From Escherichia phage VerenaMeyer_Bas76, in the sequence record PQ850632.1: a stretch of DNA of 43,821 nucleotides, one strand, 5' to 3'. Position 1 is the first letter of the stretch. The number at the start of each line of letters is the position of its first letter. This document shows positions 1,823 to 41,619 of this stretch, piece by piece. The notes below the pieces were generated by a model. The model searched no databases, had not been told where the DNA came from, and saw nothing but the letters and a program-made list of their open reading frames with translations. The position numbers and the translations under genes are program-made.

Positions 1823-3304
1823 ATGTTAACTATGAACGGTCAGAATCAGGGTGTTAAGACAAAACACCGGGAATGGCTGCATCACTTCGATAAATGGCAG
1901 AAGGTACGCCACGCTCTTGAAGGCGACCTTATCCGCTATCTGCGCAACGTCGGGAAGAACGAGCCTGACCAGACCTACGCAGCACAGCGACAGGAAGAAT
2001 ACGAGAACGGCGCTATCTGCTACAATTTCACCAAACGCACGCTGGCGGGGATGACGGGGTCAGTGATGCGCAAAGACCCTGAGCAGATTATCCCGCCTGA
2101 ACTTGAGTACCTGTTGCACAACGCTGACGGTTCAGGTGTCGGGCTGTGGCAGCACGCGCAGGATACGCTGATGGAGATTAACTCGATAGGCCGTGGCGGG
2201 TTGCTGGTGGACGCCCCGGAAACAGCCGCAGCAACGGCGGCAGAGCAGAACGCGGGATTATTAAACCCGGTAATCGCATTCTATACCGCGGAGAACATTA
2301 TCAACTGGAGACTCACCCGCATCGGTTCAGTGAACCGCGTGACGATGGTTGTATTGCGTGAGGCATGGGAATACTCGGAACCAGGCGCTGAGTTTGAAAC
2401 AAAATTCGGCGAGCAATACCGCGTCCTTGACCTGATTGACGGTCGCTACCGCCAGCGCATCTACCGCTTCGATGCCGAAGGTGGCGCACAGGATGAAGTA
2501 ATCGAAATCTTCCCGGAACTCGGCGAACAGTTGCGCGGTAAAATCCCGTTCACGTTCATTGGCGCAAGCAACAACGACGCCACTATAGACGATGCGCCTT
2601 TACTGCCGTTAGCTGAGCTAAATATCGGTCATTTCCGCAACAGCGCAGACAATGAGGAGTCCAGCTTCGTTGTAGGCCAGCCTACTCTGTTCATCGCCCC
2701 AGGTGAGAACATGAGCATGGAGCAATGGAAAGAAGCCAACCCTCACGGTGTGCGCATGGGGTCCCGTTCAGGTCATAACATTGGTTACGGCGGCAATGCG
2801 TTTCTGGTTCAGGCAGGAGAGAACAACCTCGCCAAACAGAACATGCTGGATAAAGAGAATCAGGCCATCCAGATTGGCGCGCAGCTTATCACCCCGACGC
2901 AGCAAATCACCGCGGAATCGGCCCGCCTGCAACGCGGCGCCGACACGTCAGTCATGGCAACAATAGCACGTAATGTAAGCATGGCGTATACCGATGCGTT
3001 GCGCTGGGTTGCGGGTATGCTTGGGCTTAGTGAAGATACTGAGATTGAGTTCAAGCTGAATATGGAATTCTTCCTGCAACCTATGACAGCTCAGGACCGC
3101 GCTCAGTGGATGGCGGATATTAACGCTGGCCTGCTACCCGCCACCGCTTACTATGCTGCGTTGCGCAAGGCAGGTGTGACTGACTGGACAGATGAGGACA
3201 TTCAGAACGCTATTGAAGACGCACCTCTGCCGTTGGGTTCTGTTGCTCAGGTAGCGGGAGAGATTCCGCAGTCGGCGCAGCAACAGGACACCACTCAGCA
3301 GTAA
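1823..3304 (+). CDS. portal protein
   Basis: 493 aa, ATG after AAGAGGA. Sits between terminase and head morphogenesis genes; size and acidic C-terminus are typical of portal proteins. Confidence 0.75.
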   Translation: MLTMNGQNQGVKTKHREWLHHFDKWQKVRHALEGDLIRYLRNVGKNEPDQTYAAQRQEEYENGAICYNFTKRTLAGMTGSVMRKDPEQIIPPELEYLLHNADGSGVGLWQHAQDTLMEINSIGRGGLLVDAPETAAATAAEQNAGLLNPVIAFYTAENIINWRLTRIGSVNRVTMVVLREAWEYSEPGAEFETKFGEQYRVLDLIDGRYRQRIYRFDAEGGAQDEVIEIFPELGEQLRGKIPFTFIGASNNDATIDDAPLLPLAELNIGHFRNSADNEESSFVVGQPTLFIAPGENMSMEQWKEANPHGVRMGSRSGHNIGYGGNAFLVQAGENNLAKQNMLDKENQAIQIGAQLITPTQQITAESARLQRGADTSVMATIARNVSMAYTDALRWVAGMLGLSEDTEIEFKLNMEFFLQPMTAQDRAQWMADINAGLLPATAYYAALRKAGVTDWTDEDIQNAIEDAPLPLGSVAQVAGEIPQSAQQQDTTQQ

Positions 3305-3314
3305 GTTCACCTAT

Positions 3315-3336
3315 AGCCCCGAAAGGGGCTTTCTTA
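3315..3336 (+). terminator. stem-loop AGCCCC-GAAA-GGGGCT followed by TTCTT (attenuator-like)
   Basis: Perfect 6-bp GC stem with GAAA tetraloop and a short T-run between the portal and head morphogenesis genes. Confidence 0.4.
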
Positions 3337-3340
3337 TAGT

Positions 3341-4417
3341 ATGCTATTAACTTTAGCGCCACAGGGTTTATCTATGAGCTTACTTACATCCCTAATCAGC
3401 CATCAGATATGGCTGCAACGCACCGCATCCGGTGAGGTGAAAGACCTCACGCCGTTCATTCAGGAGATAAGGGATGAAATCAAACGGCAGGTGCTGTTAT
3501 TCGGTGACGACGGTCGCAGCACTGCGCGACTGAATAAACTGTTACGCGACCTGGAAGAAGCACTAACCGGTATTACGGGTGACTGGCAAACAAAGCTAAC
3601 AGACGACCTTAAGGAACTGGCGGCGTACGAGGCTGAGTGGAACGTAAAGACACTGACCGCCAACGTAGACGCGGAATTTGTTACGCCTACCGCTGAGCAG
3701 GTATGGGCCGCTGCCGAGTTTCAACCATTATCATTGAGCGACAAGCCCGTTGATTTCACCAAGCTGATGTCTGGATGGGGCGAAACGGAAGTAGCACGTC
3801 TTGTAACTGGAGTTAAGATGGGCTTTGTGCAAGGTCAAACCACACGGCAGATTGTTAAGAATGTTGTTGGCGCTGGTGGACTAGCCGACATCTCAGAACG
3901 TAACGCGACTACGGTAATCCGCACCGCGCTGTCCCACGTATCCAACGAGGCCCGTAACGAGACGTACCGCCAGAACGACGACATCATCGAGAAGTACGAG
4001 TGGGTGTCAACGCTTGACAGCCGCACCAGTACGATTTGCAGGGTCAGAGACGGGATGACGTGGGAAATTGGTAAGGGGCCGATGCCCCCAGCCCATCCGA
4101 ACTGCCGGTCGTGCACGGCTCCGGTAATCAGTTCCGAGTTCGACTTCCTCGATAAAGGCGCAAAACGCGCGGCTAAAGGCGCGGAAGGTGGCACTCAGGT
4201 AAGCGCAGACACCACTTACTACGAGTTCCTTAAACAACAACCGGCGTGGTTTCAGGACCAGGCGCTCGGCCCGGTGCGAGGTAAGATTTTCCGTAACAGC
4301 GGTATATCGCCGGAAGAGTTTCGCGTAATATCTGTAGATGGTTTCGGGAATCCGCTCACGCTTAAGCAGATGGCGGAACTCGATAAACGTGTTGCTGATT
4401 ATCTGAAAGGGGAATAA
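3341..4417 (+). CDS. head morphogenesis protein (SPP1 gp7 / Mu F-like)
   Basis: 358 aa, directly after portal. Composition and position match the minor head protein family usually found after portal. ATG 3374 is an alternative start. Confidence 0.6.
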   Translation: MLLTLAPQGLSMSLLTSLISHQIWLQRTASGEVKDLTPFIQEIRDEIKRQVLLFGDDGRSTARLNKLLRDLEEALTGITGDWQTKLTDDLKELAAYEAEWNVKTLTANVDAEFVTPTAEQVWAAAEFQPLSLSDKPVDFTKLMSGWGETEVARLVTGVKMGFVQGQTTRQIVKNVVGAGGLADISERNATTVIRTALSHVSNEARNETYRQNDDIIEKYEWVSTLDSRTSTICRVRDGMTWEIGKGPMPPAHPNCRSCTAPVISSEFDFLDKGAKRAAKGAEGGTQVSADTTYYEFLKQQPAWFQDQALGPVRGKIFRNSGISPEEFRVISVDGFGNPLTLKQMAELDKRVADYLKGE

Positions 4418-4878
4418 TGATGGGCTTTTTCAAAGTAACTGACGTACCGTCTCGTCGCGTAGTCCAGTACGCCCGCGTGTCTGGCTCTGGCGAGAACGTG
4501 GTATTTATTGAGGACGAAAGTGTACTCGGTACACCGGTAGATGATATGCCGTTTGCAGATAAAACCGGTATTGCGTTGCCCGCCGCCGGTATGCTTTATG
4601 AAATTCCGTATCTGGCGGACGCTGGCGACGTGTATTTCTCTGTGCAACCAAAAGACGCTGAACTGGCCGACGGCAGCGCGACTATCACTGTCGAAGTTAA
4701 AGCAGGTGAAGCGCCGTATGCACTGACCTGGTACAAAGACGGTAAGGAAGTTGTCAACGCCCCGGAAGAGGCACTTTCCTTGACGGTTAACGCAGTGGGT
4801 GAATACTTCGTTAAAGTTACCGATGCTGATGGTGTAGAGGCTGTCAGTAAAGCTGCGAAGGTCACTAAGCCCGAATGA
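4417..4878 (+). CDS. Ig-like domain protein (possible capsid decoration protein)
   Basis: 153 aa, start overlaps the previous stop (TAATGATG). The C-terminal segment YALTWYKDGKEV...GEYFVKVTDADG is an Ig-like/BIG fold signature, paralogous to the C-terminus of ORF 7880..8221. Confidence 0.55.
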   Translation: MMGFFKVTDVPSRRVVQYARVSGSGENVVFIEDESVLGTPVDDMPFADKTGIALPAAGMLYEIPYLADAGDVYFSVQPKDAELADGSATITVEVKAGEAPYALTWYKDGKEVVNAPEEALSLTVNAVGEYFVKVTDADGVEAVSKAAKVTKPE

Positions 4879-4880
4879 TA

Positions 4881-4908
4881 AAAGGCCCCATTAAGGGGCC
4901 TTAGTTTT
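4881..4908. terminator. bidirectional intrinsic terminator (AAGGCCCC-ATTA-AGGGGCCTT)
   Basis: GC-rich hairpin with T-run on the plus side (AGTTTT) and A-run/T-run on the minus side. Sits between convergent genes 4417..4878(+) and 4908..5111(-). Member of a three-copy terminator family (see 12138 and 24196). Confidence 0.65.
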
Positions 4909-5111
4909 CAACGGAATCTTGTGTTTAAATCCTGCTCGTGGACGACCCTCAGAACAGTGTCATAATCCCCGTATCTTCCAGGTTCAAATATATCTAATGC
5001 CTTGTAAGCAGACATTGCGTCAGGGAAAACCTGCAGAACCTTTTTAACCCGGCACAAGTCACCGTCGAACTCTTCATCGAACTCTTGAACTACTTCGCAA
5101 ATTGCATACAT
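4908..5111 (-). CDS. hypothetical small acidic protein (67 aa), opposite-strand island gene
   Basis: ATG at 5111..5109 preceded by GGAGGTG on the minus strand. Driven by a TTGCAC-N17-TACTAT promoter copy and ends at the bidirectional terminator. No recognisable domain. Confidence 0.5.
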   Translation of the reverse strand: MYAICEVVQEFDEEFDGDLCRVKKVLQVFPDAMSAYKALDIFEPGRYGDYDTVLRVVHEQDLNTRFR

Positions 5112-5138
5112 TTTTCACCTCCTGTTTAAGTTAACTGA

Positions 5139-5167
5139 ATAGTACCCTATTATATTGGGGTGTGCAA
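5139..5167 (-). promoter_or_regulatory. sigma70-type promoter TTGCAC-N17-TACTAT (early promoter family copy 1)
   Basis: Minus-strand reading TTGCACACCCCAATATAATAGGGTACTATTCA. Near-identical copies at 13943..13971(-), 36609..36637(+) and 38025..38053(+). Confidence 0.55.
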
Positions 5168-5233
5168 ACTATTTATTTACGTATTCCAGTTATTCCACCG
5201 AATTGTAAATGTTGGAATAAACTATTCGAATAG

Positions 5234-5262
5234 TTGACTTTTCACTAAAAATATGATAAGCT
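5234..5262 (+). promoter_or_regulatory. candidate promoter TTGACT-N17-TGaTAAGCT overlapped by palindrome ACTATTCGAATAGT
   Basis: -35 TTGACT at 5234-5239; extended -10 (TG at 5254-5255, hexamer TAAGCT at 5257-5262). The 14-bp perfect palindrome at 5221-5234 abuts the -35. Confidence 0.3.
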
Positions 5263-5440
5263 CCACCTGAGCTTGTGAAGTATGAACAAGCGACCGCGGC
5301 GCGGGCAGGTAACGGAGCGGGACGTAAGTCCTGAGTGTAGTTACGCTGACGCGTTCGGAAGGGCCATACTCTATTGCTTGTGTAAAAAGTAACAGGTTTA
5401 CTGAGATTACGCCGTTTCTATGTTTAAATGATAAGGACTA

Positions 5441-5468
5441 GCGCCCCGCTTTATGGCGGGGCTTTACT
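5441..5468 (+). terminator. intrinsic terminator/attenuator upstream of the spanin genes
   Basis: Stem GCCCCGC/GCGGGGC (5443-5449 with 5456-5462) followed by TTTACTT, 19 nt upstream of the Rz-like start. Confidence 0.5.
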
Positions 5469-5486
5469 TATCGAGAAAGGGGAAAC

Positions 5487-5873
5487 ATGAATCTTAAAGC
5501 AACTGTCGTAGCAGGAGCATGTTTCATCATCCTGGTTTACGCACACGGCATCTACCAGTATCGCAGCGGATGGAACGAAGGCCGGGCTAATCTCGTTTCG
5601 CAGCAACAGCAGAAAGCACAGGCTGAGTTAGCGAAGAAAACACAACGGCAGCAGCAGGATGAATCGAAGGCCGCCGCCGCTGACAACGAAGGCAAGACGA
5701 AATCAGAGGTGATTACCCGTGAAGTCGTTAAGTACATTAAAACGCCTGGTCGCAGTGTGTGCGCTTTTGACCCTGAGCGCGTGCAGCTCAAGTCCCGCGC
5801 CGTCGCAAACGCCAACTCCATCCCCGGATACGACGATGATGCAGCCGCCGTGCAAACTGGCACCGCCAAGTAG
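5487..5873 (+). CDS. i-spanin (Rz-like inner-membrane spanin)
   Basis: 128 aa. N-terminal transmembrane anchor (ATVVAGACFIILVYA) followed by a charged, Q/A/K-rich periplasmic region. Contains an out-of-frame lipoprotein gene, the Rz/Rz1 hallmark. Confidence 0.7.
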   Translation: MNLKATVVAGACFIILVYAHGIYQYRSGWNEGRANLVSQQQQKAQAELAKKTQRQQQDESKAAAADNEGKTKSEVITREVVKYIKTPGRSVCAFDPERVQLKSRAVANANSIPGYDDDAAAVQTGTAK

Positions 5874-5982
5874 CGACGCCGACGAGGATTTGGCTATCGA
5901 CGTTCAGAACGCTGAATGTGTACGGCAACTGCGTCTGAAAGTGTTCATGTTGCAGGATTACGTGAGGAATATTCTGGAATAG
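5719..5982 (+). CDS. o-spanin (Rz1-like outer-membrane lipoprotein)
   Basis: 87 aa, GTG start after AGAGGTGA, in the +1 frame overlapping the 3' part of the i-spanin gene and extending past it. Signal peptide with lipobox LTLSAC, followed by a Pro-rich mature region. Confidence 0.7.
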   Translation: MKSLSTLKRLVAVCALLTLSACSSSPAPSQTPTPSPDTTMMQPPCKLAPPSSDADEDLAIDVQNAECVRQLRLKVFMLQDYVRNILE

Positions 5983-6064
5983 TTGCCTTGCATGTTGGAA
6001 TAATTTATTCTTGACATGTAAATCCGGGTGGCCCGGATTCCAACGTCCAGGGGACATACTGACT

Positions 6065-6766
6065 ATGAATCGTTTTTTACGTTATCCGTTCCAGGAAGAA
6101 GCTGGAGCAGAAGATAAAGCTGGTGGCGGTGACGCTCCTAAAATGTTCACCGCTGAAGAAGTTCAGGCGCTGATTGAGAAAGAAGTTGCCGGGCTTAAGG
6201 CTAATCAGGAAGCATTGTTGGCGGAGAAGAAAGAAGCCGCTCGCAAAGCAAAAGAGGCCGAAGAAGAACGGCAGCGCGCGCACCAGGAGGCGTTAAAGGC
6301 CGCCGGTAAGATGGACGAGTTTGAAAAGACGATTCGTAGCCAGTATGACCCGGTGTTAGCCGAGAAAGATGGCCGCATCTCCAGAATGGCAGAGCGTATC
6401 CTCGGCAGCGAACGTAAAGCGGTGCTAGGCTCTTTCGCGGGTGACTTTATTACCCCAGAAGCAGTGGACATTCTTGCGCCGTTCGTTAAGACTGAGTTCG
6501 AAGGCGATGATGTGGTTACTAAGTTTGTTGGTGCAGACGGTAACGTAATCACGACTGACCCGGAACAGTTCCGCAAATACCTGCGCGAACACAAGGCGTT
6601 TTCGCATTTGATCAAAGCAAATGCAGCTTCCGGCGGCGGGGCTTCCGGTAGCAAAGGCGGCGGGGCCGCACCAGCGTTTAAAGACATGAGTGAAGCAGAG
6701 CGTTTAGCCCTGTATAAATCGAACCCTGCCGAATTTGAACGGCAACTTAAAGCCCTGAGGAAATAA
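6065..6766 (+). CDS. scaffolding protein (putative)
   Basis: Highly charged, Ala/Glu/Lys-rich coiled-coil-like protein immediately upstream of the major capsid gene. ATG 6065 preferred over the TTG at 6011, which lies inside a hairpin. Confidence 0.55.
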   Translation: MNRFLRYPFQEEAGAEDKAGGGDAPKMFTAEEVQALIEKEVAGLKANQEALLAEKKEAARKAKEAEEERQRAHQEALKAAGKMDEFEKTIRSQYDPVLAEKDGRISRMAERILGSERKAVLGSFAGDFITPEAVDILAPFVKTEFEGDDVVTKFVGADGNVITTDPEQFRKYLREHKAFSHLIKANAASGGGASGSKGGGAAPAFKDMSEAERLALYKSNPAEFERQLKALRK

Positions 6767-6768
6767 TA

Positions 6769-7818
6769 ATGGCAATTACCACTATCGGCGATATCGTAAC
6801 TGGCAACATCCCGGTCCTGGCGTCTTATATGACCGAGGACCCGGTAGAAAAAACCGCGTTCTTCCAGTCTGGTATTCTGACCCCGACCCCGTACGCTGCC
6901 GAGATTGCCCGCGGCCCGTCCAACGTCGCTAATATTCCTTTCTGGAAAGCGATTGATACCTCTATCGAGCCGAACTACTCGAACGACGTATACCAGGACA
7001 TCGCCACCCCGCGTAACGTGCAGACCGGCGAGATGATGGCGCGCGTTGCGTACCTGAACGAAGGTTTCGGTCAGGCGGATTTGACCGTTGAACTGACCAG
7101 CCAGAACCCGCTGCAATCCGTAGCGTCACGTCTGGATAACTTCTGGCAGCGTCAGGCACAACGCCGTCTGATTGCTACCGCGCTCGGGCTGTACAATGAC
7201 AACGTAGCCGCTACCGACGCATACCACGAGCAGAATGACATGGTAATCGACGTGTCTGCTACTCTGGGCTTCGATGCGGGCGCGTTCATCGACGCTACCC
7301 AGACTATGGGCGATGCTCTGATGGGCAACGGCGGTGAAGTGCTGGGGGCTATCGCGATGCATAGCTTCGTTTATGCGCAGGCACGTAAGCAGCAGCTTAT
7401 CGACTTCATCCGTGACGCGGACAACAACACCATGTTCGCCACCTACCAGGGCTACCGCGTGATTGTTGACGACAGCATGACCGTAGTCGGCACTGGCCCG
7501 ACCCGTAAGTTCATCTCCATCATCTTCGGCAACGGCGCTATCGGTTACGGTGAAGGTTCTCCGTCCAACCCGCTGGAATACGAGCGCGAAGCGTCTCGCG
7601 GTAATGGTGGTGGCGTTGAAACCCTGTGGACCCGTAAGACCTGGTTGCTGCACCCACTGGGCTACAGCTTCACCAGCGCAGTAATCACCGGCAACGGCAC
7701 CGAGACTACCTCGCGCTCCGCTTCCTGGCAGGACCTGGCGAACGCCTCCAACTGGAACCGTGTGGTTGACCGCAAGCACGTACCGATTGCCTTCCTGGTA
7801 ACTGGTGTCGGTGCTTAA
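6769..7818 (+). CDS. major capsid protein
   Basis: 349 aa. Follows the scaffold gene and is followed by a strong terminator; size and position are typical of a major capsid protein. Confidence 0.75.
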   Translation: MAITTIGDIVTGNIPVLASYMTEDPVEKTAFFQSGILTPTPYAAEIARGPSNVANIPFWKAIDTSIEPNYSNDVYQDIATPRNVQTGEMMARVAYLNEGFGQADLTVELTSQNPLQSVASRLDNFWQRQAQRRLIATALGLYNDNVAATDAYHEQNDMVIDVSATLGFDAGAFIDATQTMGDALMGNGGEVLGAIAMHSFVYAQARKQQLIDFIRDADNNTMFATYQGYRVIVDDSMTVVGTGPTRKFISIIFGNGAIGYGEGSPSNPLEYEREASRGNGGGVETLWTRKTWLLHPLGYSFTSAVITGNGTETTSRSASWQDLANASNWNRVVDRKHVPIAFLVTGVGA

Positions 7819-7834
7819 GGTTAAGCTATAATCG

Positions 7835-7858
7835 AGAGGGACTTCGGTCCCTCTTTTC
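7835..7858 (+). terminator. intrinsic terminator after the major capsid gene
   Basis: 8-bp stem AGAGGGAC/GTCCCTCT with loop TTCG and a TTTT run. Confidence 0.6.
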
Positions 7859-7879
7859 ATTTACTAAGAGGATTCCTAA

Positions 7880-8221
7880 ATGGCAGACGTATTGAAGCGG
7901 CGCATCACCGGCGTCTCCGCTGACGCCCCGGGGGCCAAGATTGACATGGCGACTATTTCTCCTGCGTCTTTTTCTACCGCACTGGACGCTACCACAGCAG
8001 TTACAGCCGGGCAGACTATGACACTGCCCGTAGTTGTTACCGGTGGTCTGGCTCCGTACACCTACCAGTGGTACAAGGATAACAACGCTATCGCCGGGGC
8101 AAACGCTGCTTCCTATGCGAAGGCGTCCACTACTACCGCAGATTCTGGTACGTATAAAGTGGTTGTTCACGATGTGTATGGTAATATTATCTCCAGCAGC
8201 ACTGTAGCAACTGTGTCTTAA
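7880..8221 (+). CDS. Ig-like domain protein (second copy; possible decoration protein)
   Basis: 113 aa, ATG after AAGAGGA. Motifs YTYQWYKDNNAIAG...GTYKVVVHDVYG are Ig-like/BIG signatures, paralogous to 4417..4878. Confidence 0.6.
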   Translation: MADVLKRRITGVSADAPGAKIDMATISPASFSTALDATTAVTAGQTMTLPVVVTGGLAPYTYQWYKDNNAIAGANAASYAKASTTTADSGTYKVVVHDVYGNIISSSTVATVS

Positions 8222-8257
8222 TACAACGGCCCTTCGGGGCCGTAATAAGGAAAGGTC

Positions 8258-8437
8258 ATGGCAGATAATTATGTAATCCGCGAAAAGTACACCCACGTTG
8301 ATGTTGTTGACGGTCAGGTGATGCCTGTTCGCGGTGTTGTAGAGGCGGATGAACTGGTTGCAACCCAACCGGACAACGAAGAAGCGCACAACAACGGCGG
8401 TGGTACTAAGCGTCGTCGCCGTAAGTCAGAGGAATAA
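8258..8437 (+). CDS. hypothetical 59-aa protein with basic C-terminus (below ORF-track cutoff)
   Basis: ATG 8258 after AAGGAAAGG; open frame to TAA 8435-8437; ends GGGTKRRRRKSEE. Found by manual translation. Confidence 0.35.
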   Translation: MADNYVIREKYTHVDVVDGQVMPVRGVVEADELVATQPDNEEAHNNGGGTKRRRRKSEE

Positions 8438-8440
8438 TTT

Positions 8441-8953
8441 ATGCCGCTAATCGTGGAAACTGGGGTGATCGTCCCAAATGCCGACAGTTACATTAGTCTG
8501 GCTGACGCCCGCGCGTTAGCGGCTAATTATGGCCTTGAACTACCGGCAGACGATACCGCTGCAGAGGTGGCCTTGCGCAACGGTGCTACTTATGTCGGGC
8601 TTGCAGAACCGCAGATGTGCGGTCGTCGTGTATCCGCTGAACAGTCTCTGGCGTATCCTCGCACTGGCGTTACGTTAAACGGGTTCCCTGTCGCGAACAA
8701 TGTAATCCCGAAACAGGTTATTCTTGCGCAGGTAATCGCTGCCGCTACATATGGCGAGGGCACCGAAGTCCGGGCTAACTCAGACGGTCGCGCCGTGCAG
8801 ACTGAGCGTGTCGAGGGTGCGGTAACAGTGACCTACTTCAACAATGGCAACAGTGGCGCTACGACAGCGATTACCGCTGCTGACGACGCTTTACGCCCGT
8901 TATTGTGTGGCGGTCTTAACAATGGTTTCTCGTTTAACGTGTACCGGGGTTAA
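8441..8953 (+). CDS. head-tail connector / adaptor protein (putative)
   Basis: 170 aa. Position after the capsid genes and a composition resembling gp6-like connector proteins. Confidence 0.45.
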   Translation: MPLIVETGVIVPNADSYISLADARALAANYGLELPADDTAAEVALRNGATYVGLAEPQMCGRRVSAEQSLAYPRTGVTLNGFPVANNVIPKQVILAQVIAAATYGEGTEVRANSDGRAVQTERVEGAVTVTYFNNGNSGATTAITAADDALRPLLCGGLNNGFSFNVYRG

Positions 8954-8955
8954 AA

Positions 8956-9570
8956 ATGGCGAAGACTAAATCAGAGATATTCACGCTAATCGGTTCCGAG
9001 CTACCGGACAACACGACCGGACTTATTACGCCTGCGAAGTTGCGCGGGGTATTAACCCAGATGGCTGACTCACCTATTTACGCCACTCCGGGTGTTAAAG
9101 AGGTTGAAGTTCTCCGCGCTGCGTCGACAGTAGCGCAAGCGCCTACCGCAGTAGATACGGCGTTGCAGGTATCGTTCGGCTCTGCTCAGGGTAGTGCATC
9201 TGACCCGGTAATGATTAATGCTGCGGGGCTGGTTACATTCAACACCGCGGGTAACTACGCCGTTCGCATCAAGTTACAGGCGGGGCGCACAGGGGTCAGC
9301 GGCACGTCCATCCTGTTACCGCGCATTCTTCTTAACGGAGCTCAATACGGCTCACCAGCTGCCACGAAACTGGTAAGCGCCGATGTAACAATCCCGATTG
9401 AATCCCGCGTCGTTATTAACCCGACCGCAGGCCAGACGTTTGCCGTTCAGATTATGCGGGATAGCGCCGGGAGTAACTTCGGCGGCGTATACCCGCAAGC
9501 GGCTACGGTAACTGCATGGGGCACAGCACCATCTGCGCTACTGGTTATTTCGAGACTGGAGGCTGCGTAA
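8956..9570 (+). CDS. virion structural protein (unassigned)
   Basis: 204 aa, tightly packed in the head-tail joining region. No diagnostic motif recognised. Confidence 0.4.
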   Translation: MAKTKSEIFTLIGSELPDNTTGLITPAKLRGVLTQMADSPIYATPGVKEVEVLRAASTVAQAPTAVDTALQVSFGSAQGSASDPVMINAAGLVTFNTAGNYAVRIKLQAGRTGVSGTSILLPRILLNGAQYGSPAATKLVSADVTIPIESRVVINPTAGQTFAVQIMRDSAGSNFGGVYPQAATVTAWGTAPSALLVISRLEAA

Positions 9571-13914: not shown

Positions 13915-13942
13915 AATTATTTCCTCAGTAAGTTACATGTGA

Positions 13943-13971
13943 ATAGTACCCTATTATATTGGGGTGTGCAA
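13943..13971 (-). promoter_or_regulatory. sigma70-type promoter TTGCAC-N17-TACTAT (early promoter family copy 2)
   Basis: Minus-strand reading TTGCACACCCCAATATAATAGGGTACTATTCA, identical over about 30 nt to the copy at 5139..5167. Confidence 0.55.
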
Positions 13972-14078
13972 GTAGTGTGCTAGAATAAGTTTGCGCCTAG
14001 TGTCGCACACGAAAAGCGGGTGGTTCCCGCCTGGCGCATTAACCATAACCAGTAACCTCTTAACCAAAGGACTAAAGA

Positions 14079-24542: not shown

Positions 24543-25963
24543 TTCTTACCTCGTCTCTTCATGTAATTAAGCAACTCTTCCTGTACCGATTTTTTCTCGT
24601 CCGTACGCGCGGCAACAACCTCGTCCAGCGTGTCTTTAGCGACGATATGATAGAGGAACACCGGGCGCTCGTGTCCCGCCTGTTTCTGGCGGACCGGGCC
24701 GATGCGCTCAACGACCTGCAAATAGTGCTCAAGGTTCCAGCCTTGTGAAATAAACGCTAGATGGTGTCCGCCGTCCTGTAAATTCAAACCATGCCCGGCT
24801 GACGCAGGATGCACGCATAAGATTTCGATTTCGCCGCGGTTCCACGCTTCCATCTGCTTATTCCCCTTAGCGCCTTTGGCAAACGCCTGCGCCTGCGGGA
24901 AACGTTTCAGGATGCGCTCCAGTTCGTGCTTGAACTGATAGGCCACCAGTAACGGTGCCCCCTGTAACTCCTCAACAATGGACTCGAGCGCATCAAGTTT
25001 CGTGTCGTGCACTTTCTCCCATTCTTTGGTTGCTTCGCCGTCTTCGCCCGTCACATACACGGCACCGGAAGCAATCTGCAAGCACTTAGCCGTTTTAGCG
25101 GCAGCGTTGGCAGCCTGCACCTCCCCACTCTCCAGTTCCGCGATTAACTTTTTCTCCATGTCGTCGTACGCCTGACGCGCTTTCTTCGGCAGGTCTATTT
25201 CGACCGGTACGATAATCGGCGCTTCACAACCAAACCACTCGGCAGGGTCTATGGTCAGGCTGATGTCTTTCATCTTCTGATGAATCTCATTATCCGCACC
25301 CGGTCGTGCATGATACTCGCGGGCCATAGCCGATTTACCTTTCTGTACCGAGTTAAACCAGCGGTCGGTGAATGCTGTGTACGAAGAGCCGAGGCGCTCG
25401 CCAGCGTCGATAAACCAGTTCTGACCCCACAAGTCTTTGAGGCCGTTTGGTGACGGTGTGCCTGTCAGGTTGATGAAACGCTTAACCTTTCCGAACGCAA
25501 CCTTGCTGAGCGCCTTTGCCCGCTTGCTACCACCCGAACGGCTGCGGAACGATTTAAGCTTCGTGCTTTCATCGGCAACGATAACCGTAAAAGGCCAGTC
25601 GTCTTTGCCGTAGTAGTCAATTAGCCACTCGATAACTTCGTAGTTAGTGCACACCACGTTAGCATCTGACTCCAGCGCTGCGATGCGGCGCTTCTCCGAA
25701 CCAGTTGCATCTACGACACGCAGACAAGGGAATTGCCATTTCTCTTGTTCAGCGGGCCACGTACCGGACGCAACACGTAACGGGGCAAGGATTAACACGC
25801 GGTCCTCTTCCGTAAGCTGCCCGTTGCGGAACAGGCGGTTGAGCACCCACATAGTGGAGGAGGTTTTACCTCCCCCCATTCCGCACCAGATATTACAGCG
25901 CGGGTGTTGCAGCATGAACGAAGTCATGAGCTTCTGGTACTCACGCCTTTGAAACTTACTCAT
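24539..25963 (-). CDS. SNF2-family (superfamily II) helicase
   Basis: 474 aa. Walker A GMGGGKTSS, motif II DESTKLK, motif III LTGTPSPN, C-terminal helicase motif QVVERIGPVRQ. Confidence 0.85.
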   Translation of the reverse strand: MSKFQRREYQKLMTSFMLQHPRCNIWCGMGGGKTSSTMWVLNRLFRNGQLTEEDRVLILAPLRVASGTWPAEQEKWQFPCLRVVDATGSEKRRIAALESDANVVCTNYEVIEWLIDYYGKDDWPFTVIVADESTKLKSFRSRSGGSKRAKALSKVAFGKVKRFINLTGTPSPNGLKDLWGQNWFIDAGERLGSSYTAFTDRWFNSVQKGKSAMAREYHARPGADNEIHQKMKDISLTIDPAEWFGCEAPIIVPVEIDLPKKARQAYDDMEKKLIAELESGEVQAANAAAKTAKCLQIASGAVYVTGEDGEATKEWEKVHDTKLDALESIVEELQGAPLLVAYQFKHELERILKRFPQAQAFAKGAKGNKQMEAWNRGEIEILCVHPASAGHGLNLQDGGHHLAFISQGWNLEHYLQVVERIGPVRQKQAGHERPVFLYHIVAKDTLDEVVAARTDEKKSVQEELLNYMKRRGKK

Positions 25964-26941: not shown

Positions 26942-27257
26942 TTCTAAATTCCTTATATTGTTGGGGTATGTGCTTACTATAATAGTCTGCTATTAGGGTG
27001 TCAATCTGTTTTATCGAACCAACGACAAAAACATTTGCGCCACGTTTACGTATACGCTCGTGTTCCCGTAGCTGGTGCGGGTCTGGCTTAGTGTTTTCGT
27101 CTTTCTTCACCTCGACGAACCAGACGATGCCGCCGGGTAGAATTGCCAGCAGGTCAGGAGCGCCTGAACGTCCTTCGTAGGAAAGTTTACGAACGAGGCC
27201 ACCAATGGCCTCGAATCGCTCTTTTGCGTATTTCTGGATGCGGCCCTCTTTAGTCAT
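26925..27257 (-). CDS. VRR-NUC domain nuclease
   Basis: 110 aa. PD-(D/E)XK-type motifs GAPDLLAI...VWFVEVKK...QLREHE, characteristic of VRR-NUC. Confidence 0.7.
   Translation of the reverse strand: MTKEGRIQKYAKERFEAIGGLVRKLSYEGRSGAPDLLAILPGGIVWFVEVKKDENTKPDPHQLREHERIRKRGANVFVVGSIKQIDTLIADYYSKHIPQQYKEFRNETRI
26975..27003 (-). promoter_or_regulatory. sigma70-type promoter TTGACA-N17-TATAGT (internal, inside the 3' end of the VRR-NUC gene)
   Basis: Minus-strand reading TTGACACCCTAATAGCAGACTATTATAGT. Same family as 30678 and 32978. Confidence 0.45.
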
Positions 27258-33070: not shown

Positions 33071-33286
33071 ATGCAACCATCTGAACTAGGCATCCGTGTA
33101 GAACAACGCCGCAAAGAACTCGGCATCTCCCAGCGCCGTCTGGCGGTCCTGGCTGGCGTTTCCCAGGGCGCGATTAACCAGCTTGCGCTCGGGGTAACTC
33201 AGGACGTCCGGCCGGCAACGCTGTTCAAACTGGCGGAAGTTCTGGAAGTAGACGCCAAGTGGCTGGCGTTAGGTGAAGGGGCTTAA
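33071..33286 (+). CDS. XRE/Cro-type helix-turn-helix transcriptional regulator
   Basis: 71 aa. HTH signature ELGISQRRLAVLAGVSQGAINQL. Lone plus-strand gene between two minus-strand operons. Confidence 0.7.
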   Translation: MQPSELGIRVEQRRKELGISQRRLAVLAGVSQGAINQLALGVTQDVRPATLFKLAEVLEVDAKWLALGEGA

Positions 33287-35720: not shown

Positions 35721-36011
35721 TTACCGTTTAGCCAACTCTTCCAGCAAATTTTTATACTCTTCAAAATATTCCTCGACCAAATCATCGCCGAAATAGAAGT
35801 CGATATACTCGAGATTATCTCTTACGTTAAGCGATGCCGACATGGTGCTTAGTTGGCGTAAGCTAATTAGCTTCATTTCTGTTTCTACACAGAAAGGCCG
35901 GTAGGTATCAAGATGGCAAGAGATATTGAAACATAAGGCGAACTCTCCCGCCACGGTGTGGACCATATACACTTCGTTTTCTGCTTTATTGTGGAAAATT
36001 ACGCCTTTCAT
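35721..36011 (-). CDS. hypothetical protein (96 aa)
   Basis: ATGA-coupled to the upstream HTH gene. No motif recognised. Confidence 0.45.
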   Translation of the reverse strand: MKGVIFHNKAENEVYMVHTVAGEFALCFNISCHLDTYRPFCVETEMKLISLRQLSTMSASLNVRDNLEYIDFYFGDDLVEEYFEEYKNLLEELAKR

Positions 36012-36190
36012 TTCACGTTCTCCTTAATCCATGCTTCGACTTTATTACGGTCAAATGTTCCCGGTAAACGGCGGCCCATAACCTTAATACAGCAGTCAGG
36101 GAATTTGCCGCTGCGCAACCAGTTATTAATGGTCTGACGTGTCACCCCGATACGTTCAGCTACTTCATTCTGCGTCATATAATGCGACAT
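36008..36190 (-). CDS. AlpA/excisionase-like HTH DNA-binding protein
   Basis: Motif MTQNEVAERIGVTRQTINNWLRSGKFP. ATG at 36190 preceded by AGGAGAT; the ORF track extends to 36304. Confidence 0.55.
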   Translation of the reverse strand: MSHYMTQNEVAERIGVTRQTINNWLRSGKFPDCCIKVMGRRLPGTFDRNKVEAWIKENVK

Positions 36191-36287
36191 TTTTATATCT
36201 CCTGTTTGTTTGGTGAAACTGAGTATAGGATAGCGGGAATGTAAAAGCAACCAATCTCTGTAATATTTAATCTTTACAAAAATGTTA

Positions 36288-36317
36288 TTGAAAGTTCTTG
36301 ACACATGTTTGTATAAT
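36288..36317 (+). promoter_or_regulatory. candidate promoter TTGAAA-N18-TATAAT
   Basis: -35 at 36288-36293, -10 at 36312-36317. Directs transcription into the non-coding region 36325-36540. Confidence 0.3.
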
Positions 36318-36608: not shown

Positions 36609-36637
36609 TTGCACACCCCAATATAATAGGATACTAT
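36609..36637 (+). promoter_or_regulatory. sigma70-type promoter TTGCAC-N17-TACTAT (early promoter family copy 3)
   Basis: TTGCACACCCCAATATAATAGGATACTATTCA followed by the leader CGAAACGAGACAGAGGAG. Confidence 0.55.
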
Positions 36638-36662
36638 TCACTTATCGAAACGAGACAGAGGA

Positions 36663-38234: not shown

Positions 38235-38496
38235 CAGTTACACCGTGACCGTTGATTTTGAGGGGCTGGAGTTGCCCCTCCCCAACAACTACAGATATAT
38301 AACACGTGACCGTTTCGGTTTTATCCAGGGGTGGCGGAACAAACCAACAGACACTGAGTTCGGGATGTCAGGAGGAGAAGAGTTGCCGATCACTTTCGGG
38401 CATCAGAGTAGTAATGAAAAACTTAAAACTGTGATTCGTAAGTATCGACGCCGTGGTAATACCGGGCTTATAGCGATAACCGGCGCTGTTGAGTAA
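38224..38496 (+). CDS. hypothetical early protein (about 90 aa)
   Basis: ORF track 38218..38496. ATG 38224 or TTG 38218. Confidence 0.4.
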   Translation: MNFNSYTVTVDFEGLELPLPNNYRYITRDRFGFIQGWRNKPTDTEFGMSGGEELPITFGHQSSNEKLKTVIRKYRRRGNTGLIAITGAVE

Positions 38497-38515
38497 ACGG
38501 GAGGAGAGACAGAAG

Positions 38516-39202
38516 ATGAGTAACAAAAACGAAGTATTCGAGTACCTGATTGACCAACTACGTCAGCAGGTAAATAACAACCAGTGCGAAGACCTGGCGC
38601 ATGAGGTGCAGTCACTTAAGAATCAGTTACGTGATGCGTCGGCGCTGGTGGCGGAGTTGCAGGAAGACAACATTAAGAAATCTGAGCACATATCGCACCT
38701 GTCGGAACTGGTGGACGAGTTGATGGGGACTATAACGTTAATGAACGGGGACGTTGAGGCTTACAAAGTTCTACGCAAATGTGCGTGCGCCTATGGGCAA
38801 TCCGGTTGTCGCGACGACGCCGCTCATATCGAGAAATCGTGGATTGAGCACGCTGGCGCCGCATGCCCTGTACCGGACGATACTGTTGTTGATATTAAAT
38901 TCCGAAACGGCAAAATGGAAAGTAATACCAAAGCGCTATGGTGGAGTTGGGGCCTAAATGGCGGACCATACGAAATTGTTGCGTACCGTGTTGCCGCGCA
39001 ACAATGCAATAAGGACGATACTCGTGAGTGCGCGCATGATTGGGTGCTGGACGAAAAAGGGGACTACTTCATTTGCGCTAAATGCGGTAAGCAAGAAGCT
39101 GACTTAATTGATTGCCGACACACTAATACCGTCGGTTTGCGTAAGGGCTTTGCGCCGGGGTTTACTAAAAAGTGTCTGGATTGCGGGGCTAAACTGAAAT
39201 GA
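38516..39202 (+). CDS. coiled-coil / Cys-rich zinc-ribbon protein (228 aa)
   Basis: ATG 38516 after GGGAGGAGAGA. N-terminal heptad-like region; C-terminal CxxC pairs (CAKCG...CLDCG). Confidence 0.5.
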   Translation: MSNKNEVFEYLIDQLRQQVNNNQCEDLAHEVQSLKNQLRDASALVAELQEDNIKKSEHISHLSELVDELMGTITLMNGDVEAYKVLRKCACAYGQSGCRDDAAHIEKSWIEHAGAACPVPDDTVVDIKFRNGKMESNTKALWWSWGLNGGPYEIVAYRVAAQQCNKDDTRECAHDWVLDEKGDYFICAKCGKQEADLIDCRHTNTVGLRKGFAPGFTKKCLDCGAKLK

Positions 39203-39898: not shown

Positions 39899-40192
39899 AT
39901 GAGCCTTGCAACTGACATCCTGAAACGGAGCGGCCTTGCGCCGCTGTCGCCGAGAGCGAACACACGAATATACAAGCGCCGCCGTAATGCGCTGTACCCT
40001 GAGATTCAGGCCAGACGCAAAGCAGTCCGCGCCTGCGGATTCCAGAACGGGAAGGCTGTGAATCTCGGTGAGTTTAAAACAAAGGAACGTGCGGCTATCG
40101 CTAATCGGTTATTTAATTACTGGAAATCGCTGGGTTATGAAGATATTCCGACGAAACCACAGAGACGACAATACATCTGGCGTCATAAATAA
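39899..40192 (+). CDS. basic protein (97 aa), possible nucleic-acid binding
   Basis: Lys/Arg-rich (RRRNALYPEIQARRKAVR...). Preceded by an ATGA-coupled 29-codon micro-ORF at 39813..39902. Confidence 0.45.
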   Translation: MSLATDILKRSGLAPLSPRANTRIYKRRRNALYPEIQARRKAVRACGFQNGKAVNLGEFKTKERAAIANRLFNYWKSLGYEDIPTKPQRRQYIWRHK

Positions 40193-41467: not shown

Positions 41468-41496
41468 TTGACACCTAAGACTAATCCGACGATACT
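41468..41496 (+). promoter_or_regulatory. candidate promoter TTGACA-N17-GATACT
   Basis: Perfect -35 TTGACA at 41468-41473; weak -10 GATACT at 41491-41496. About 40 nt upstream of a strong terminator. Confidence 0.3.
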
Positions 41497-41535
41497 TAAA
41501 TCACCTCCTGCTCCATCCCTCTGCTCTCCAGTTTT

Positions 41536-41569
41536 ATCCCGGCCCTGACCCAGCCGGGATTTTTTTTTA
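41536..41569 (+). terminator. strong intrinsic terminator (ATCCCGGC-CCTGACCCA-GCCGGGAT plus T9)
   Basis: 8-bp GC-rich stem followed by nine T. Confidence 0.7.
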
Positions 41570-41590
41570 TCTATTTTCTGCAATGACTAG

Positions 41591-41619
41591 TTGACTATTA
41601 CCATCGACCCTATTATATT
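41591..41619 (+). promoter_or_regulatory. sigma70-type promoter TTGACT-N17-TATATT
   Basis: -35 at 41591-41596, -10 at 41614-41619, followed by the leader CGACAACGAGAACGGGGTAGAGAGAA and ATG 41654. Confidence 0.5.

Follow-up and report, generated by a model that had tools for sequence, protein, structure and literature searches.

The DNA analysed here, 43,821 nucleotides in length and referred to throughout as the window, is the sequence of Escherichia phage VerenaMeyer_Bas76 (PQ850632.1), and the element under study is a promoter followed by a structured, non-coding 5′ leader RNA immediately ahead of the spanin genes. The window belongs to a Kagunavirus (Guernseyvirinae); its region 4880-5500 is 97-99.7% identical to that of Kagunavirus Escherichia phages such as vB_Ec_DUEC01 and the BASEL phages Bas70-75, the identity to Bas75 and DUEC01 being about 99%. 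The gene order in Bas75 is terminase, portal, head morphogenesis protein, Hoc-like protein, a small opposite-strand gene, the Rz-like spanins, scaffold and major head protein. The Guernseyvirinae (Kagunavirus, Jerseyvirus and Cornellvirus) are among the commonest phage isolates of E. coli and Salmonella and are used in phage-therapy and biocontrol cocktails, and their gene regulation has hardly been studied so far.

The leader is a previously undescribed, mosaic and strongly constrained RNA of the Guernseyvirinae spanin genes. What the analysis demonstrates is the promoter, the fold, the non-coding nature of the RNA, its fixed place before the spanin gene and the confinement of a U-rich tract to one lineage; the start site, any termination and the mode of regulation are inferred.

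Promoter and fold of the leader

An earlier note on this DNA had placed a promoter with a TTGACT hexamer and an extended -10 element at 5234-5262. The assignment was borne out when the sequence upstream of the spanin gene was taken from 47 relatives: the motif TGnTA[A/C]GCT stands at the same place in 47 of 47, with n being all four bases. A variable n inside an otherwise invariant motif is the pattern expected for an extended -10, and the site carries the TG, T-12, A-11 and T-7 of a sigma-70 extended -10 promoter together with a -35 hexamer at 17 nt. A generic promoter scan misses 5234-5262 because the -10 fits the consensus at only 3 of its 6 positions; the three that match are the key ones, T-12, A-11 and T-7. 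Standard sigma-70 geometry would put the transcription start near 5269.

The RNA that would start there has a strong and strand-specific fold. On the plus strand, 5268-5472 folds at -72.5 kcal/mol (z -2.8), with 0 of 200 shuffles as good, as against -52.7 kcal/mol on the minus strand. A covariance model, R1, was built from 28 Kagunavirus-type sequences with the minimum-energy fold as its structure, and 36 sequences of the Kagunavirus and Jersey types were fitted to it as the main covariation alignment. There, 97.5% of the cells pair canonically, and double-sided changes are found in 22 of the 51 pairs, compared with 10.7 +/- 1.9 in 500 shuffles, none of which reached 22. When the structure is shifted by 1-3 columns, only 35-40% of the cells are paired. 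A plain MAFFT alignment, independent of any model, likewise holds compensatory pairs, and the G-U pairs are conserved only when read on the plus strand. With compensatory pairs, a strand-specific fold and no conserved reading frame, the transcript is a conserved structured RNA, and the suggestion in the earlier note of a small or regulatory RNA was in this respect a good call.

Table 1. Features of the promoter, leader and spanin genes in the window
Feature	Position	Strand	Description
Repeat-rich, AT-rich upstream region	5183-5235		ATTCC at 5183-5187 and 5192-5196; GGAAT at 5214-5218; palindrome at 5220-5235
-35 hexamer, TTGACT	5234-5239	+	Unchanged in almost all relatives of the Kagunavirus type; Jersey type, TAGACT or TAGATT
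Extended -10, TGaTAAGCT	5254-5262	+	TG at 5254-5255, one base, TAAGCT at 5257-5262; 17 nt from the -35
Predicted transcription start	5269-5270	+	7 nt past the -10, by standard sigma-70 geometry; P1 begins 2 nt on
P1, 5′-end hairpin GCUUGU/ACAAGC	5271-5291	+	5271-5276 with 5286-5291; 5 of 6 pairs compensatory between types
36-codon open reading frame (ORF)	5282-5392	+	Annotated as hypothetical in several GenBank records; in our judgement not a gene
P2, long three-part hairpin	5294-5358	+	P2a, P2b and P2c plus an asymmetric internal loop
P2a	5294-5296 and 5298-5303 with 5350-5358	+	99% of cells paired
P2b	5306-5313 with 5340-5348	+	6 of 8 pairs compensatory
P2c	5318-5323 with 5328-5333	+	GUAA loop; 3 of 6 pairs compensatory
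Conserved linker	5359-5429	+	No helix supported in every type; diversity 0.034 within the Kagunavirus type
Long 3′ hairpin	5430-5472	+	Outer GAUAAG/CUUAUC, 5430-5435 with 5467-5472; middle, 5439-5441 with 5464-5466; inner, 5443-5450 with 5455-5462
Genes under the leader	5476-5982	+	Ribosome binding site (RBS) GAAAGGGG; i-spanin 5487-5873; overlapping o-spanin, end at 5982

The part of P2 that is kept is not its apical loop, which varies among GUAA, CACA and CGCA, but its asymmetric internal loop, in which GGAG (5314-5317; or GAAG) lies opposite AGUGUA (5334-5339), with the pattern AG[U/C]GUA. A K-turn can be dismissed here, since the GA/GA arrangement it requires is absent; a loop-E or bulged-G motif, with GUA opposite GA, is possible from the base pattern. 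A hairpin at 5353-5364 with a GGAA tetraloop, reminiscent of SRP RNA, was also considered and rejected, as it is broken in three relatives (labelled L028, L036 and L049) with no compensation. The direct repeats 5271-5282 / 5376-5391 and 5252-5259 / 5427-5434 change together between lineages. In the first pair, the 5′ arm of P1 recurs after P2 as GCUUGUG..AAGUA in the Kagunavirus type and as GCUUUCAG in the Jersey type; in the second, the -10 and the outer arm of the 3′ hairpin share ATGATAAG, and in the Jersey type they share TACG. One possibility that the first repeat raises is that the 3′ arm of P1 might alternatively pair with the second copy.

The leader has one ORF, with its ATG inside the P1 loop. 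It is disrupted in 10 of 36 close relatives (cut to 9-17 aa in 5, frame-shifted in 1, without the ATG in 2 and extended in 2), and it is not present in the Jersey-type leaders or in the other leader types compared, so that the earlier description of a leader with no convincing ORF holds. Mini-ORFs starting from a conserved AUGUUUA were rejected as well: they have no Shine-Dalgarno sequence, and relative L041 has neither AUG codon. These facts bear on a reading that we consider extremely unlikely, namely that the conservation reflects the 36-aa protein or an element acting at the DNA level, such as operators, an origin or a packaging site. The annotation of the ORF in several records and the operator-like repeats and palindrome upstream would speak for it; however, apart from the fate of the ORF, the pairs that the compensatory changes maintain are RNA pairs, G-U among them, and on the other strand a G-U pair would read as an A-C mismatch; moreover, the plus strand folds far better than the minus strand.

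The upstream DNA itself deserves attention. A perfect 16-bp palindrome, AACTATTCGAATAGTT (5220-5235), is unique in the window and overlaps the -35, with its centre about -41.5 from the predicted start. The ATTCC/GGAAT/TATTC blocks are retained in the Jersey-type and L028 leaders, while nucleotide diversity upstream of the promoter in the Kagunavirus type is 0.117 versus 0.03 in the RNA. By their arrangement, the repeats and the palindrome are probable candidates for regulator binding sites, which suggests that initiation is also controlled by a DNA-binding protein. Two helix-turn-helix (HTH) proteins are encoded in the window, at 33071-33286 (+) and 36008-36304 (-), as identified by Pfam and PHROG scans.

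Two other places in the window resemble this promoter region. Between the o-spanin and scaffold genes, a cluster at 5967-6040 echoes the DNA upstream of the leader promoter, with the elements GGAATATTC, GAATAGTTGCCT, GTTGGAATAA, TTTATTC, TTGACA and TGTAAAT. It holds a possible promoter (TTGCCT, 17 nt, TATTCT) and a hairpin, ATCCGGG/CCCGGAT, without a U-tract, and on account of this cluster the scaffold and capsid genes may have their own promoter under the control of the same protein. At 41586-41619, a promoter with TTGACT, 17 nt and TATATT precedes the small genes before the terminase gene; the 9-mer TAGTTGACT is common to it and to the leader promoter (5230-5239), and may mark a common promoter class.

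Leader types and their place before the spanin genes

Every Guernseyvirinae relative with readable upstream sequence has a promoter and a non-coding leader of about 180-300 nt before the i-spanin gene. The Kagunavirus-type leader is about 96% identical within the type and is also found in some Salmonella phages. The Jersey type is about 70% identical to it and is recovered by R1 over its full length with E of about 1e-13; further variants are L011/L027, L017 and L028. An R1 search found a single copy of the leader in the window and a single copy in the full Bas75 genome. More distant relatives were gathered through a scaffold-protein search of metagenomes and a search of a phage collection with one of the new leaders, which added the Cornellvirus phages Shemara, W5, SE1 and FSL SP-031, the Pantoea phage AH01 and several metagenome phages. 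Where their upstream sequence is long enough to judge, the non-coding stretch between promoter and i-spanin gene measures roughly 215-300 nt.

The Cornellvirus-type leader has 62 pairs, 13 of them compensatory, in five hairpins according to RNAalifold. Its first hairpin, H1, stands at the place of P1 but is longer and wholly different in sequence, also between the two Cornellvirus subtypes. H2 is laid out like P2, with a GUAA-capped stem and a 3′-side internal loop of UGUAGCGUUAA or GAAGCGA, and the block AUAGUCUAUU is common to the Cornellvirus type and to Kagunavirus-type variants. The leader of FSL SP-031 is a hybrid whose 5′ half is Jersey/Kagunavirus-like and whose 3′ half is Cornellvirus-like. 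The leaders of two metagenome phages, L209 and L212, make up a fourth type, about 220 nt upstream of the i-spanin gene, with five TTGCGAG copies around a TAGGCT -10. Judged by eye, a 12-bp long-range helix of GGUUGCUGCCGUU with AACGGCAGCAAU closes this leader just before the RBS, and both phages share AUUGCUUGU with the Kagunavirus type.

The constraint on the leader is stronger than that on the adjacent protein-coding genes. Among Kagunavirus-type sequences, P1-P2 have a nucleotide diversity of 0.031, the linker one of 0.034 and the 3′ hairpin one of 0.026, compared with 0.085, 0.068 and 0.182 at the first, second and third codon positions of the spanin gene and 0.106, 0.084 and 0.273 at those of the scaffold gene. 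Between the Kagunavirus and Jersey leader types the divergence reaches about 0.40, as high as at third codon positions, and the pairs are nonetheless retained.

No known family accounts for this RNA. Rfam 15 gave no match at gathering thresholds in the whole window, and at E up to 10 on 5100-5520 the sole match was a generic terminator hairpin; a tRNA/tmRNA search found none. A loose three-block DNA pattern search of viral contigs returned chance matches only. Because R1 was later negative in these contigs, 873 kb of them, unrelated to the phages studied here, served as its negative control. A stricter motif search of 185,579 bacterial and archaeal genomes, one per species, gave 2 chance matches in Leptolinea, in which R1 was negative. 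A literature search found no paper on non-coding RNA in these phages and, as far as searchable papers show, no dedicated leader for spanin genes has been described. What emerges is a conserved RNA element which annotation pipelines miss or mislabel as a 36-aa protein, and a candidate new Rfam family with a seed alignment that spans several structural types.

The neighbourhood of the leader tells which genes it belongs to. In Shemara and in the metagenome phage L211, the unit consists of promoter, leader, Rz and Rz1, followed by opposite-strand genes before the scaffold gene; in Shemara a terminator stands directly after Rz/Rz1. In the Kagunavirus phages it is the cassette upstream of the leader that varies. 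Cassettes have entered on either side of the unit but in no case between leader and spanin gene, which assigns the element to the spanin genes; and since the Cornellvirus leader drives Rz/Rz1 only, apart from the scaffold gene, it is an element of the spanins rather than of scaffold and capsid. The earlier note had set the leader before the spanin, scaffold and capsid genes as one group. Its fixed position before the spanin gene stands. The association is of interest because spanin genes have no described dedicated regulation.

As to the cassettes, the slot in the window is occupied by the small opposite-strand gene at 4908-5111 (-), which lies between a bidirectional terminator (4882-4902) and the leader. 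In relatives the same slot holds a beta-clamp-like gene, a RusA resolvase, an adenine methyltransferase, an HNH gene or a hypothetical gene, and the promoter and leader flanking it stay about 96% identical. A second swappable cassette is found at about 12.1-13.9 kb.

The 3′ hairpin and the question of termination

The leader ends in a hairpin which the earlier note had described as an intrinsic terminator at 5441-5468. A terminator-like hairpin is indeed present, but the true structure is longer: the full hairpin, 5430-5472, has 17 bp and ends 14 nt before the spanin ATG (5487). Its inner stem, 5443-5462, has 8 bp with 7 G-C pairs, an energy of -16.5 kcal/mol and a tail score of -3.99, with 5 U in the first 8 tail bases. 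The tail reads TTTACTTATC / UUUACUUAU, and the tail UUUACUUAUC is also the 3′ arm of the outer helices. The window thus carries the GC-rich hairpin and U-rich tract of an intrinsic terminator, and 5443-5462 is the top terminator-like site in 3000-9000. The region as a whole has no excess of terminator-like sites (8 found versus 6.5 expected), so that the case for this hairpin rests on its own quality and conservation.

It is the conservation that separates the helix from the terminator. The outer helix shows compensatory changes, GC to UA and AU to CG, in 7 of 7 Jersey-type sequences, and the inner helix shows one, CG to UA, in relative L009. The Jersey type has UAUACG/CGUAUA in place of GAUAAG/CUUAUC, and its U-tract has decayed to the tail UUAGCGUAU, with 3 U in 8; the terminator scan is negative there and positive after the capsid gene of the same phage. 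In the Cornellvirus type the terminal hairpin, which compensatory changes likewise maintain, lacks a U-run, and no plus-strand terminator is called by the scan in those leaders. The terminator features are therefore not conserved in the homologous Jersey-type and Cornellvirus-type leaders, and the U-rich 3′ arm is limited to the Kagunavirus type, while all the folded types (Kagunavirus, Jersey and Cornellvirus) keep a terminal hairpin of 14-17 bp at 12-20 nt before the i-spanin ATG. A hairpin that is compensated while its U-tract is lost indicates that selection keeps the helix and not the terminator. It is worth warning, more generally, that a hairpin plus a few U is unsafe as a regulatory terminator unless relatives are checked.

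In the window, the scores of 5443-5462 come close to those of two other sites, 3315-3330 behind the portal gene and 7834-7855 behind the capsid gene. Both of these must leak, because essential genes follow them without an intervening promoter. Judged by these scores, termination at the leader hairpin is probably also partial, moderate and leaky. In the Kagunavirus phage Schulenburg, the terminators marked by the CPT curators do not include that of the leader.

These observations weigh on the proposal, made in the earlier note, of late-gene control by antitermination as in lambda. Under such a checkpoint most transcripts would stop at 5462-5472 until a later Q-like or N-like factor, or a put/canT-like leader RNA, permits read-through at this terminator and at those downstream. 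The order of strong promoter, RNA of about 200 nt, U-tract hairpin and genes is that of the lambda pR′-6S-tR′ layout, more terminators lie inside the downstream operon without a later promoter (for example 7834-7855 after the capsid gene), and P1 and P2 sit where RNA-only processive antiterminators sit, promoter-proximal and before terminators (PMC9378689, PMC11658703). Against this, the Jersey-type and Cornellvirus-type leaders keep the hairpin and not the U-tract, and Cornellvirus has Rz/Rz1 alone downstream, with a presumably functional terminator behind them. Moreover, transcripts that never bear the leader pass through similar upstream terminators, for instance that behind the portal gene, so that leaky termination explains the operon without an antiterminator.

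Searches for the parts of such a system were likewise negative. The earlier statement that no antiterminator gene is obvious was confirmed: tblastn with the lambda and HK022 Q proteins found no homologue (best E 2.9), the PHROG-based annotation of the 99%-identical Bas75 lists no antiterminator and only two regulators, and a Pfam scan of ten candidate proteins found no antiterminator and only the two HTH proteins. R1 had no match in the whole HK022 genome, which includes putL, putR and the Q region, at E up to 10, nor in the lambda pR′-6S-tR′ region. In the early transcribed region a -10-like pause element conserved across types was not seen, only a weak AAGTAT at +10 to +15 in the Kagunavirus type, in a segment that is deleted in Jersey-type leaders; at the promoter, where a Q-binding element would lie, the palindrome overlaps the -35. 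A likeness to the rrn/lambda boxA and the RfaH ops element, judged by eye against consensus sequences, was rejected for too many mismatches and lack of conservation between types. With no Q homologue, no put or lambda 6S similarity, a U-tract limited to one type and a Cornellvirus unit reduced to Rz/Rz1, lambda-like late-gene antitermination is not borne out and strikes us as unlikely, even though a structurally novel Q or another novel antiterminator is possible.

In the search for an N-like arginine-rich protein, the sole real gene flagged, encoding 97 aa at 39899-40192 (+), was not accepted as such: Pfam gave nothing and a PDB sequence search was uninformative. By eye the protein has the look of an AP2-type DNA-binding domain, which no tool confirmed, and it is a candidate regulator. 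So is a 237-aa Cys-rich protein at 38489-39202 (+), with an N-terminal coiled coil and several CxxC motifs and with no Pfam or informative PDB sequence match. Both genes lie just upstream of the holin and endolysin genes.

The same hairpin raises the question of a trans-acting small RNA (sRNA): the terminated RNA of about 200 nt would itself be the product, pairing with or sequestering host or phage targets, and its adjacency to the spanin genes would merely reflect a shared gene order. The paired 3′ end would shield a released RNA from 3′ exonucleases, the pairing is under selection, and the invariant single-stranded blocks of the linker could serve as seeds. We nevertheless regard this as quite improbable. 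A search of the phage genome for trans targets of the linker and P1 gave no clear outlier, the best duplexes being interrupted with z of about -5 among 17,000 windows, and the same test does return a two-block exact match for a neighbouring candidate sRNA. Release of a short RNA would need a terminator, which the Cornellvirus-type leaders and probably the Jersey-type ones lack, and the leader is never parted from the spanin start despite cassette insertion on both sides.

The neighbouring candidate is the second promoter-terminator unit of the window, at 41468-41570 (+). A promoter (TTGACA, 16 nt, GATACT) is followed there by an RNA of about 70 nt, whose CU-rich 5′ part, AUCACCUCCUGCUCCAUCCCUCUGCUCUCCAGUUUUA, is unstructured and which has a strong terminator (8-bp stem, nine U). 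The best non-self target of this RNA in the genome is 25102-25151 (minus-strand transcript), inside an opposite-strand gene of the helicase region, where CACCUCC and the block CUCUCCAGUU are exactly complementary, at -40.5 kcal/mol compared with a mean of -11.3 (sd 5.2). This complementarity makes it a candidate trans-acting antisense sRNA.

Proposed role of the leader and comparison with known systems

Between P2 and the 3′ hairpin lies the linker. Its invariant blocks are UAUUGCUU (5372-5379), AGAUUACGCCGU (5404-5415) and AUGUUUA, and a further one, UUCGGAAGGGCC (5354-5365), starts within P2a; across types, one linker block reads AGAUU(A)CGCCGU. The Kagunavirus type alone has a hairpin at 5388-5402, which the Jersey type does not keep, and a second internal promoter in the linker was rejected because its spacing is inconsistent among types. 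Two segments of P2, the internal-loop strand GUGUA (5335-5339) and the 5′ strand of P2a (5296-5301), are complementary to the block AUUACGCC (5406-5413). This block has only two natural variants, and both keep wobble pairs with the loop strand. A pseudoknot, 5335-5339 / 5408-5412, and an alternative helix, 5296-5301 / 5410-5415, are both possible on this basis, and we treat the dual complementarity as a lead and not as a result.

Such pairings would suit a riboswitch-like or protein-responsive sensor, in which the P2 loop and the linker form a pocket, possibly pseudoknotted, that controls the 3′ hairpin or access to the RBS and so times spanin synthesis. Helices that vary with compensation around invariant internal-loop and linker bases, and a hairpin just before the RBS, are typical of riboswitches. 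We still rate a sensor of this kind as very unlikely. There is no matching Rfam family even at the permissive threshold given above, and when both alignments were scanned systematically, no conserved pairing emerged that competes with the 3′ hairpin, including any mutually exclusive antiterminator pairing with the terminator 5′ arm, or that covers the Shine-Dalgarno sequence, so that no switch can be proposed. Pairing of P2c with the terminator 5′ arm as an antiterminator was tried and rejected, since L017 and L028 alter P2c with the terminator unchanged; more generally, variants that change P2c or GGGCC are uncompensated in the 3′ hairpin. The layouts of the leader types are also too different for one shared ligand pocket.

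The reading that we favour, while giving it somewhat less than an even chance, is that of a promoter and structured 5′ leader of the Guernseyvirinae spanin (Rz/Rz1-like) unit, with the leader acting in cis after transcription has started. Host sigma-70 RNA polymerase would start near 5269 from the extended -10 promoter, and the first 200 nt or so would fold into P1, P2 with its asymmetric internal loop, the linker and the 17-bp hairpin. The leader would then act in cis on spanin expression after initiation, through stability, processing or translation. By analogy with other 5′-terminal stem-loops, P1 at the extreme 5′ end may protect the mRNA, and together with the hairpin next to the RBS it may set mRNA stability, processing and translation initiation; the occurrence of a terminal hairpin just before the RBS in every folded type points to a role of this kind. 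The P2 loop and the linker could be a docking surface for a putative factor or protein, or make tertiary contacts within the RNA. In the Kagunavirus type, a fraction of the transcripts would probably end at the U-rich 3′ arm to give an RNA of about 200 nt with a paired 3′ end, and the rest would read through. As the spanin genes of Kagunavirus and Jerseyvirus have no terminator behind them, the leader may also affect the scaffold and capsid genes there. Promoter and leader together offer a compact system, about 240 bp long, in which to study the way a virulent phage with no recognised RNA polymerase or antiterminator of its own tunes its lysis and head genes.

Several points weigh against this cis-acting leader. 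The covariation comes from few independent lineages (two main types and about 5 variants), and the main alignment is model-fitted. The start near 5269, the 3′ end and the read-through fraction are predictions. The homology between the Kagunavirus/Jersey and Cornellvirus leaders consists of shared motifs and a weak R1 match, in phage W5 at H2 (E 0.008 in a 5.6-kb search). The sole published RNA-seq paper on a Kagunavirus gives gene-level expression classes with no intergenic coverage. Lastly, a conserved leader of 200-300 nt is more elaborate than stabilisation alone would call for, and the invariant linker has no assigned role in it.

A bolder idea, which we would not expect to hold but which deserves mention, makes the leader an RNA checkpoint on the final stage of lysis, either a sensor (riboswitch-like or protein-responsive) or a put-like RNA that modifies RNA polymerase, in which the P2 loop and the linker read a signal of the infected cell and set the timing or amount of spanin. 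Were it true, the same signal could affect scaffold and capsid synthesis in Kagunavirus and Jerseyvirus, and it would be the first described RNA-level control of spanin genes, in more than 400 sequenced phages.

The window holds other regulatory units besides those mentioned above. A 32-bp repeat, TGAATAGTACCCTATTATATTGGGGTGTGCAA, occurs at 5136-5167, 13940-13971 and 36609-36640, with weaker copies near 26981, 30683, 32983, 33027 and 38041. On its opposite strand the repeat reads as a good sigma-70 promoter (TTGCAC, 17 nt, TACTAT) facing the adjacent opposite-strand or early genes, and it contains an operator-like inverted repeat, AATAG-N4-CTATT (12 hits versus 1.2 expected), overlapping the -10. 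Genome papers have called this motif a 'phage RNA polymerase promoter' (PHIRE); no RNA polymerase gene was recognised in the window genome or in the Bas75 annotation. At 13959-14078, a promoter (TTGGGG, 16 nt, TGcTAGAAT) overlaps the divergent promoter of the 32-bp repeat and is followed by an 85-nt leader, negative with R1, with a GCGGG/CCCGC hairpin before the tail assembly chaperone gene.

Among known systems, riboswitches and attenuators resemble the leader in having a conserved core and covarying helices followed by a U-tract hairpin in the 5′ untranslated region. They differ in that the leader has no Rfam match and no conserved antiterminator alternative that we could find, and that its terminator feature is present in one lineage. 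The likeness to the Q-controlled lambda system of pR′, the 194-nt 6S RNA and tR′ lies in the outline: both have a sigma-70 promoter whose -35 is TTGACT, then some 200 nt of untranslated RNA and a hairpin terminator before lysis or late genes, and even a spurious small ORF annotated over the RNA (orf-64 in lambda, the 36-aa ORF here). However, the lambda terminator has a run of six U where the leader has UUUACUUAU and relatives have lost the U-tract; the lambda 6S region is not known to need a conserved fold, which here is the conserved feature; and the genes served in Cornellvirus are the spanins only and not a whole late operon.

HK022 putL/putR, Tn916 canT and the Bacillus EAR element are, like the leader, structured promoter-proximal RNAs that stand before terminators and act in cis (PMC9378689, PMC11658703), and for the leader the cis action is our supposition. 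P1 and P2 are positioned like the two stems of put, but the leader is 2-4 times longer and has an invariant linker and an RBS-adjacent hairpin that put does not need. A further comparison can be made with the structured 5′ leaders and RNase III sites exemplified by the T7 R-sites after late promoters, the lambda N leader and the ompA 5′ stem-loop. We know of no sequence relation between them and the leader; the likeness is one of architecture, in that both have a hairpin at the extreme 5′ end and long, irregular hairpins interrupted by an asymmetric internal loop, and both lie between promoter and RBS.

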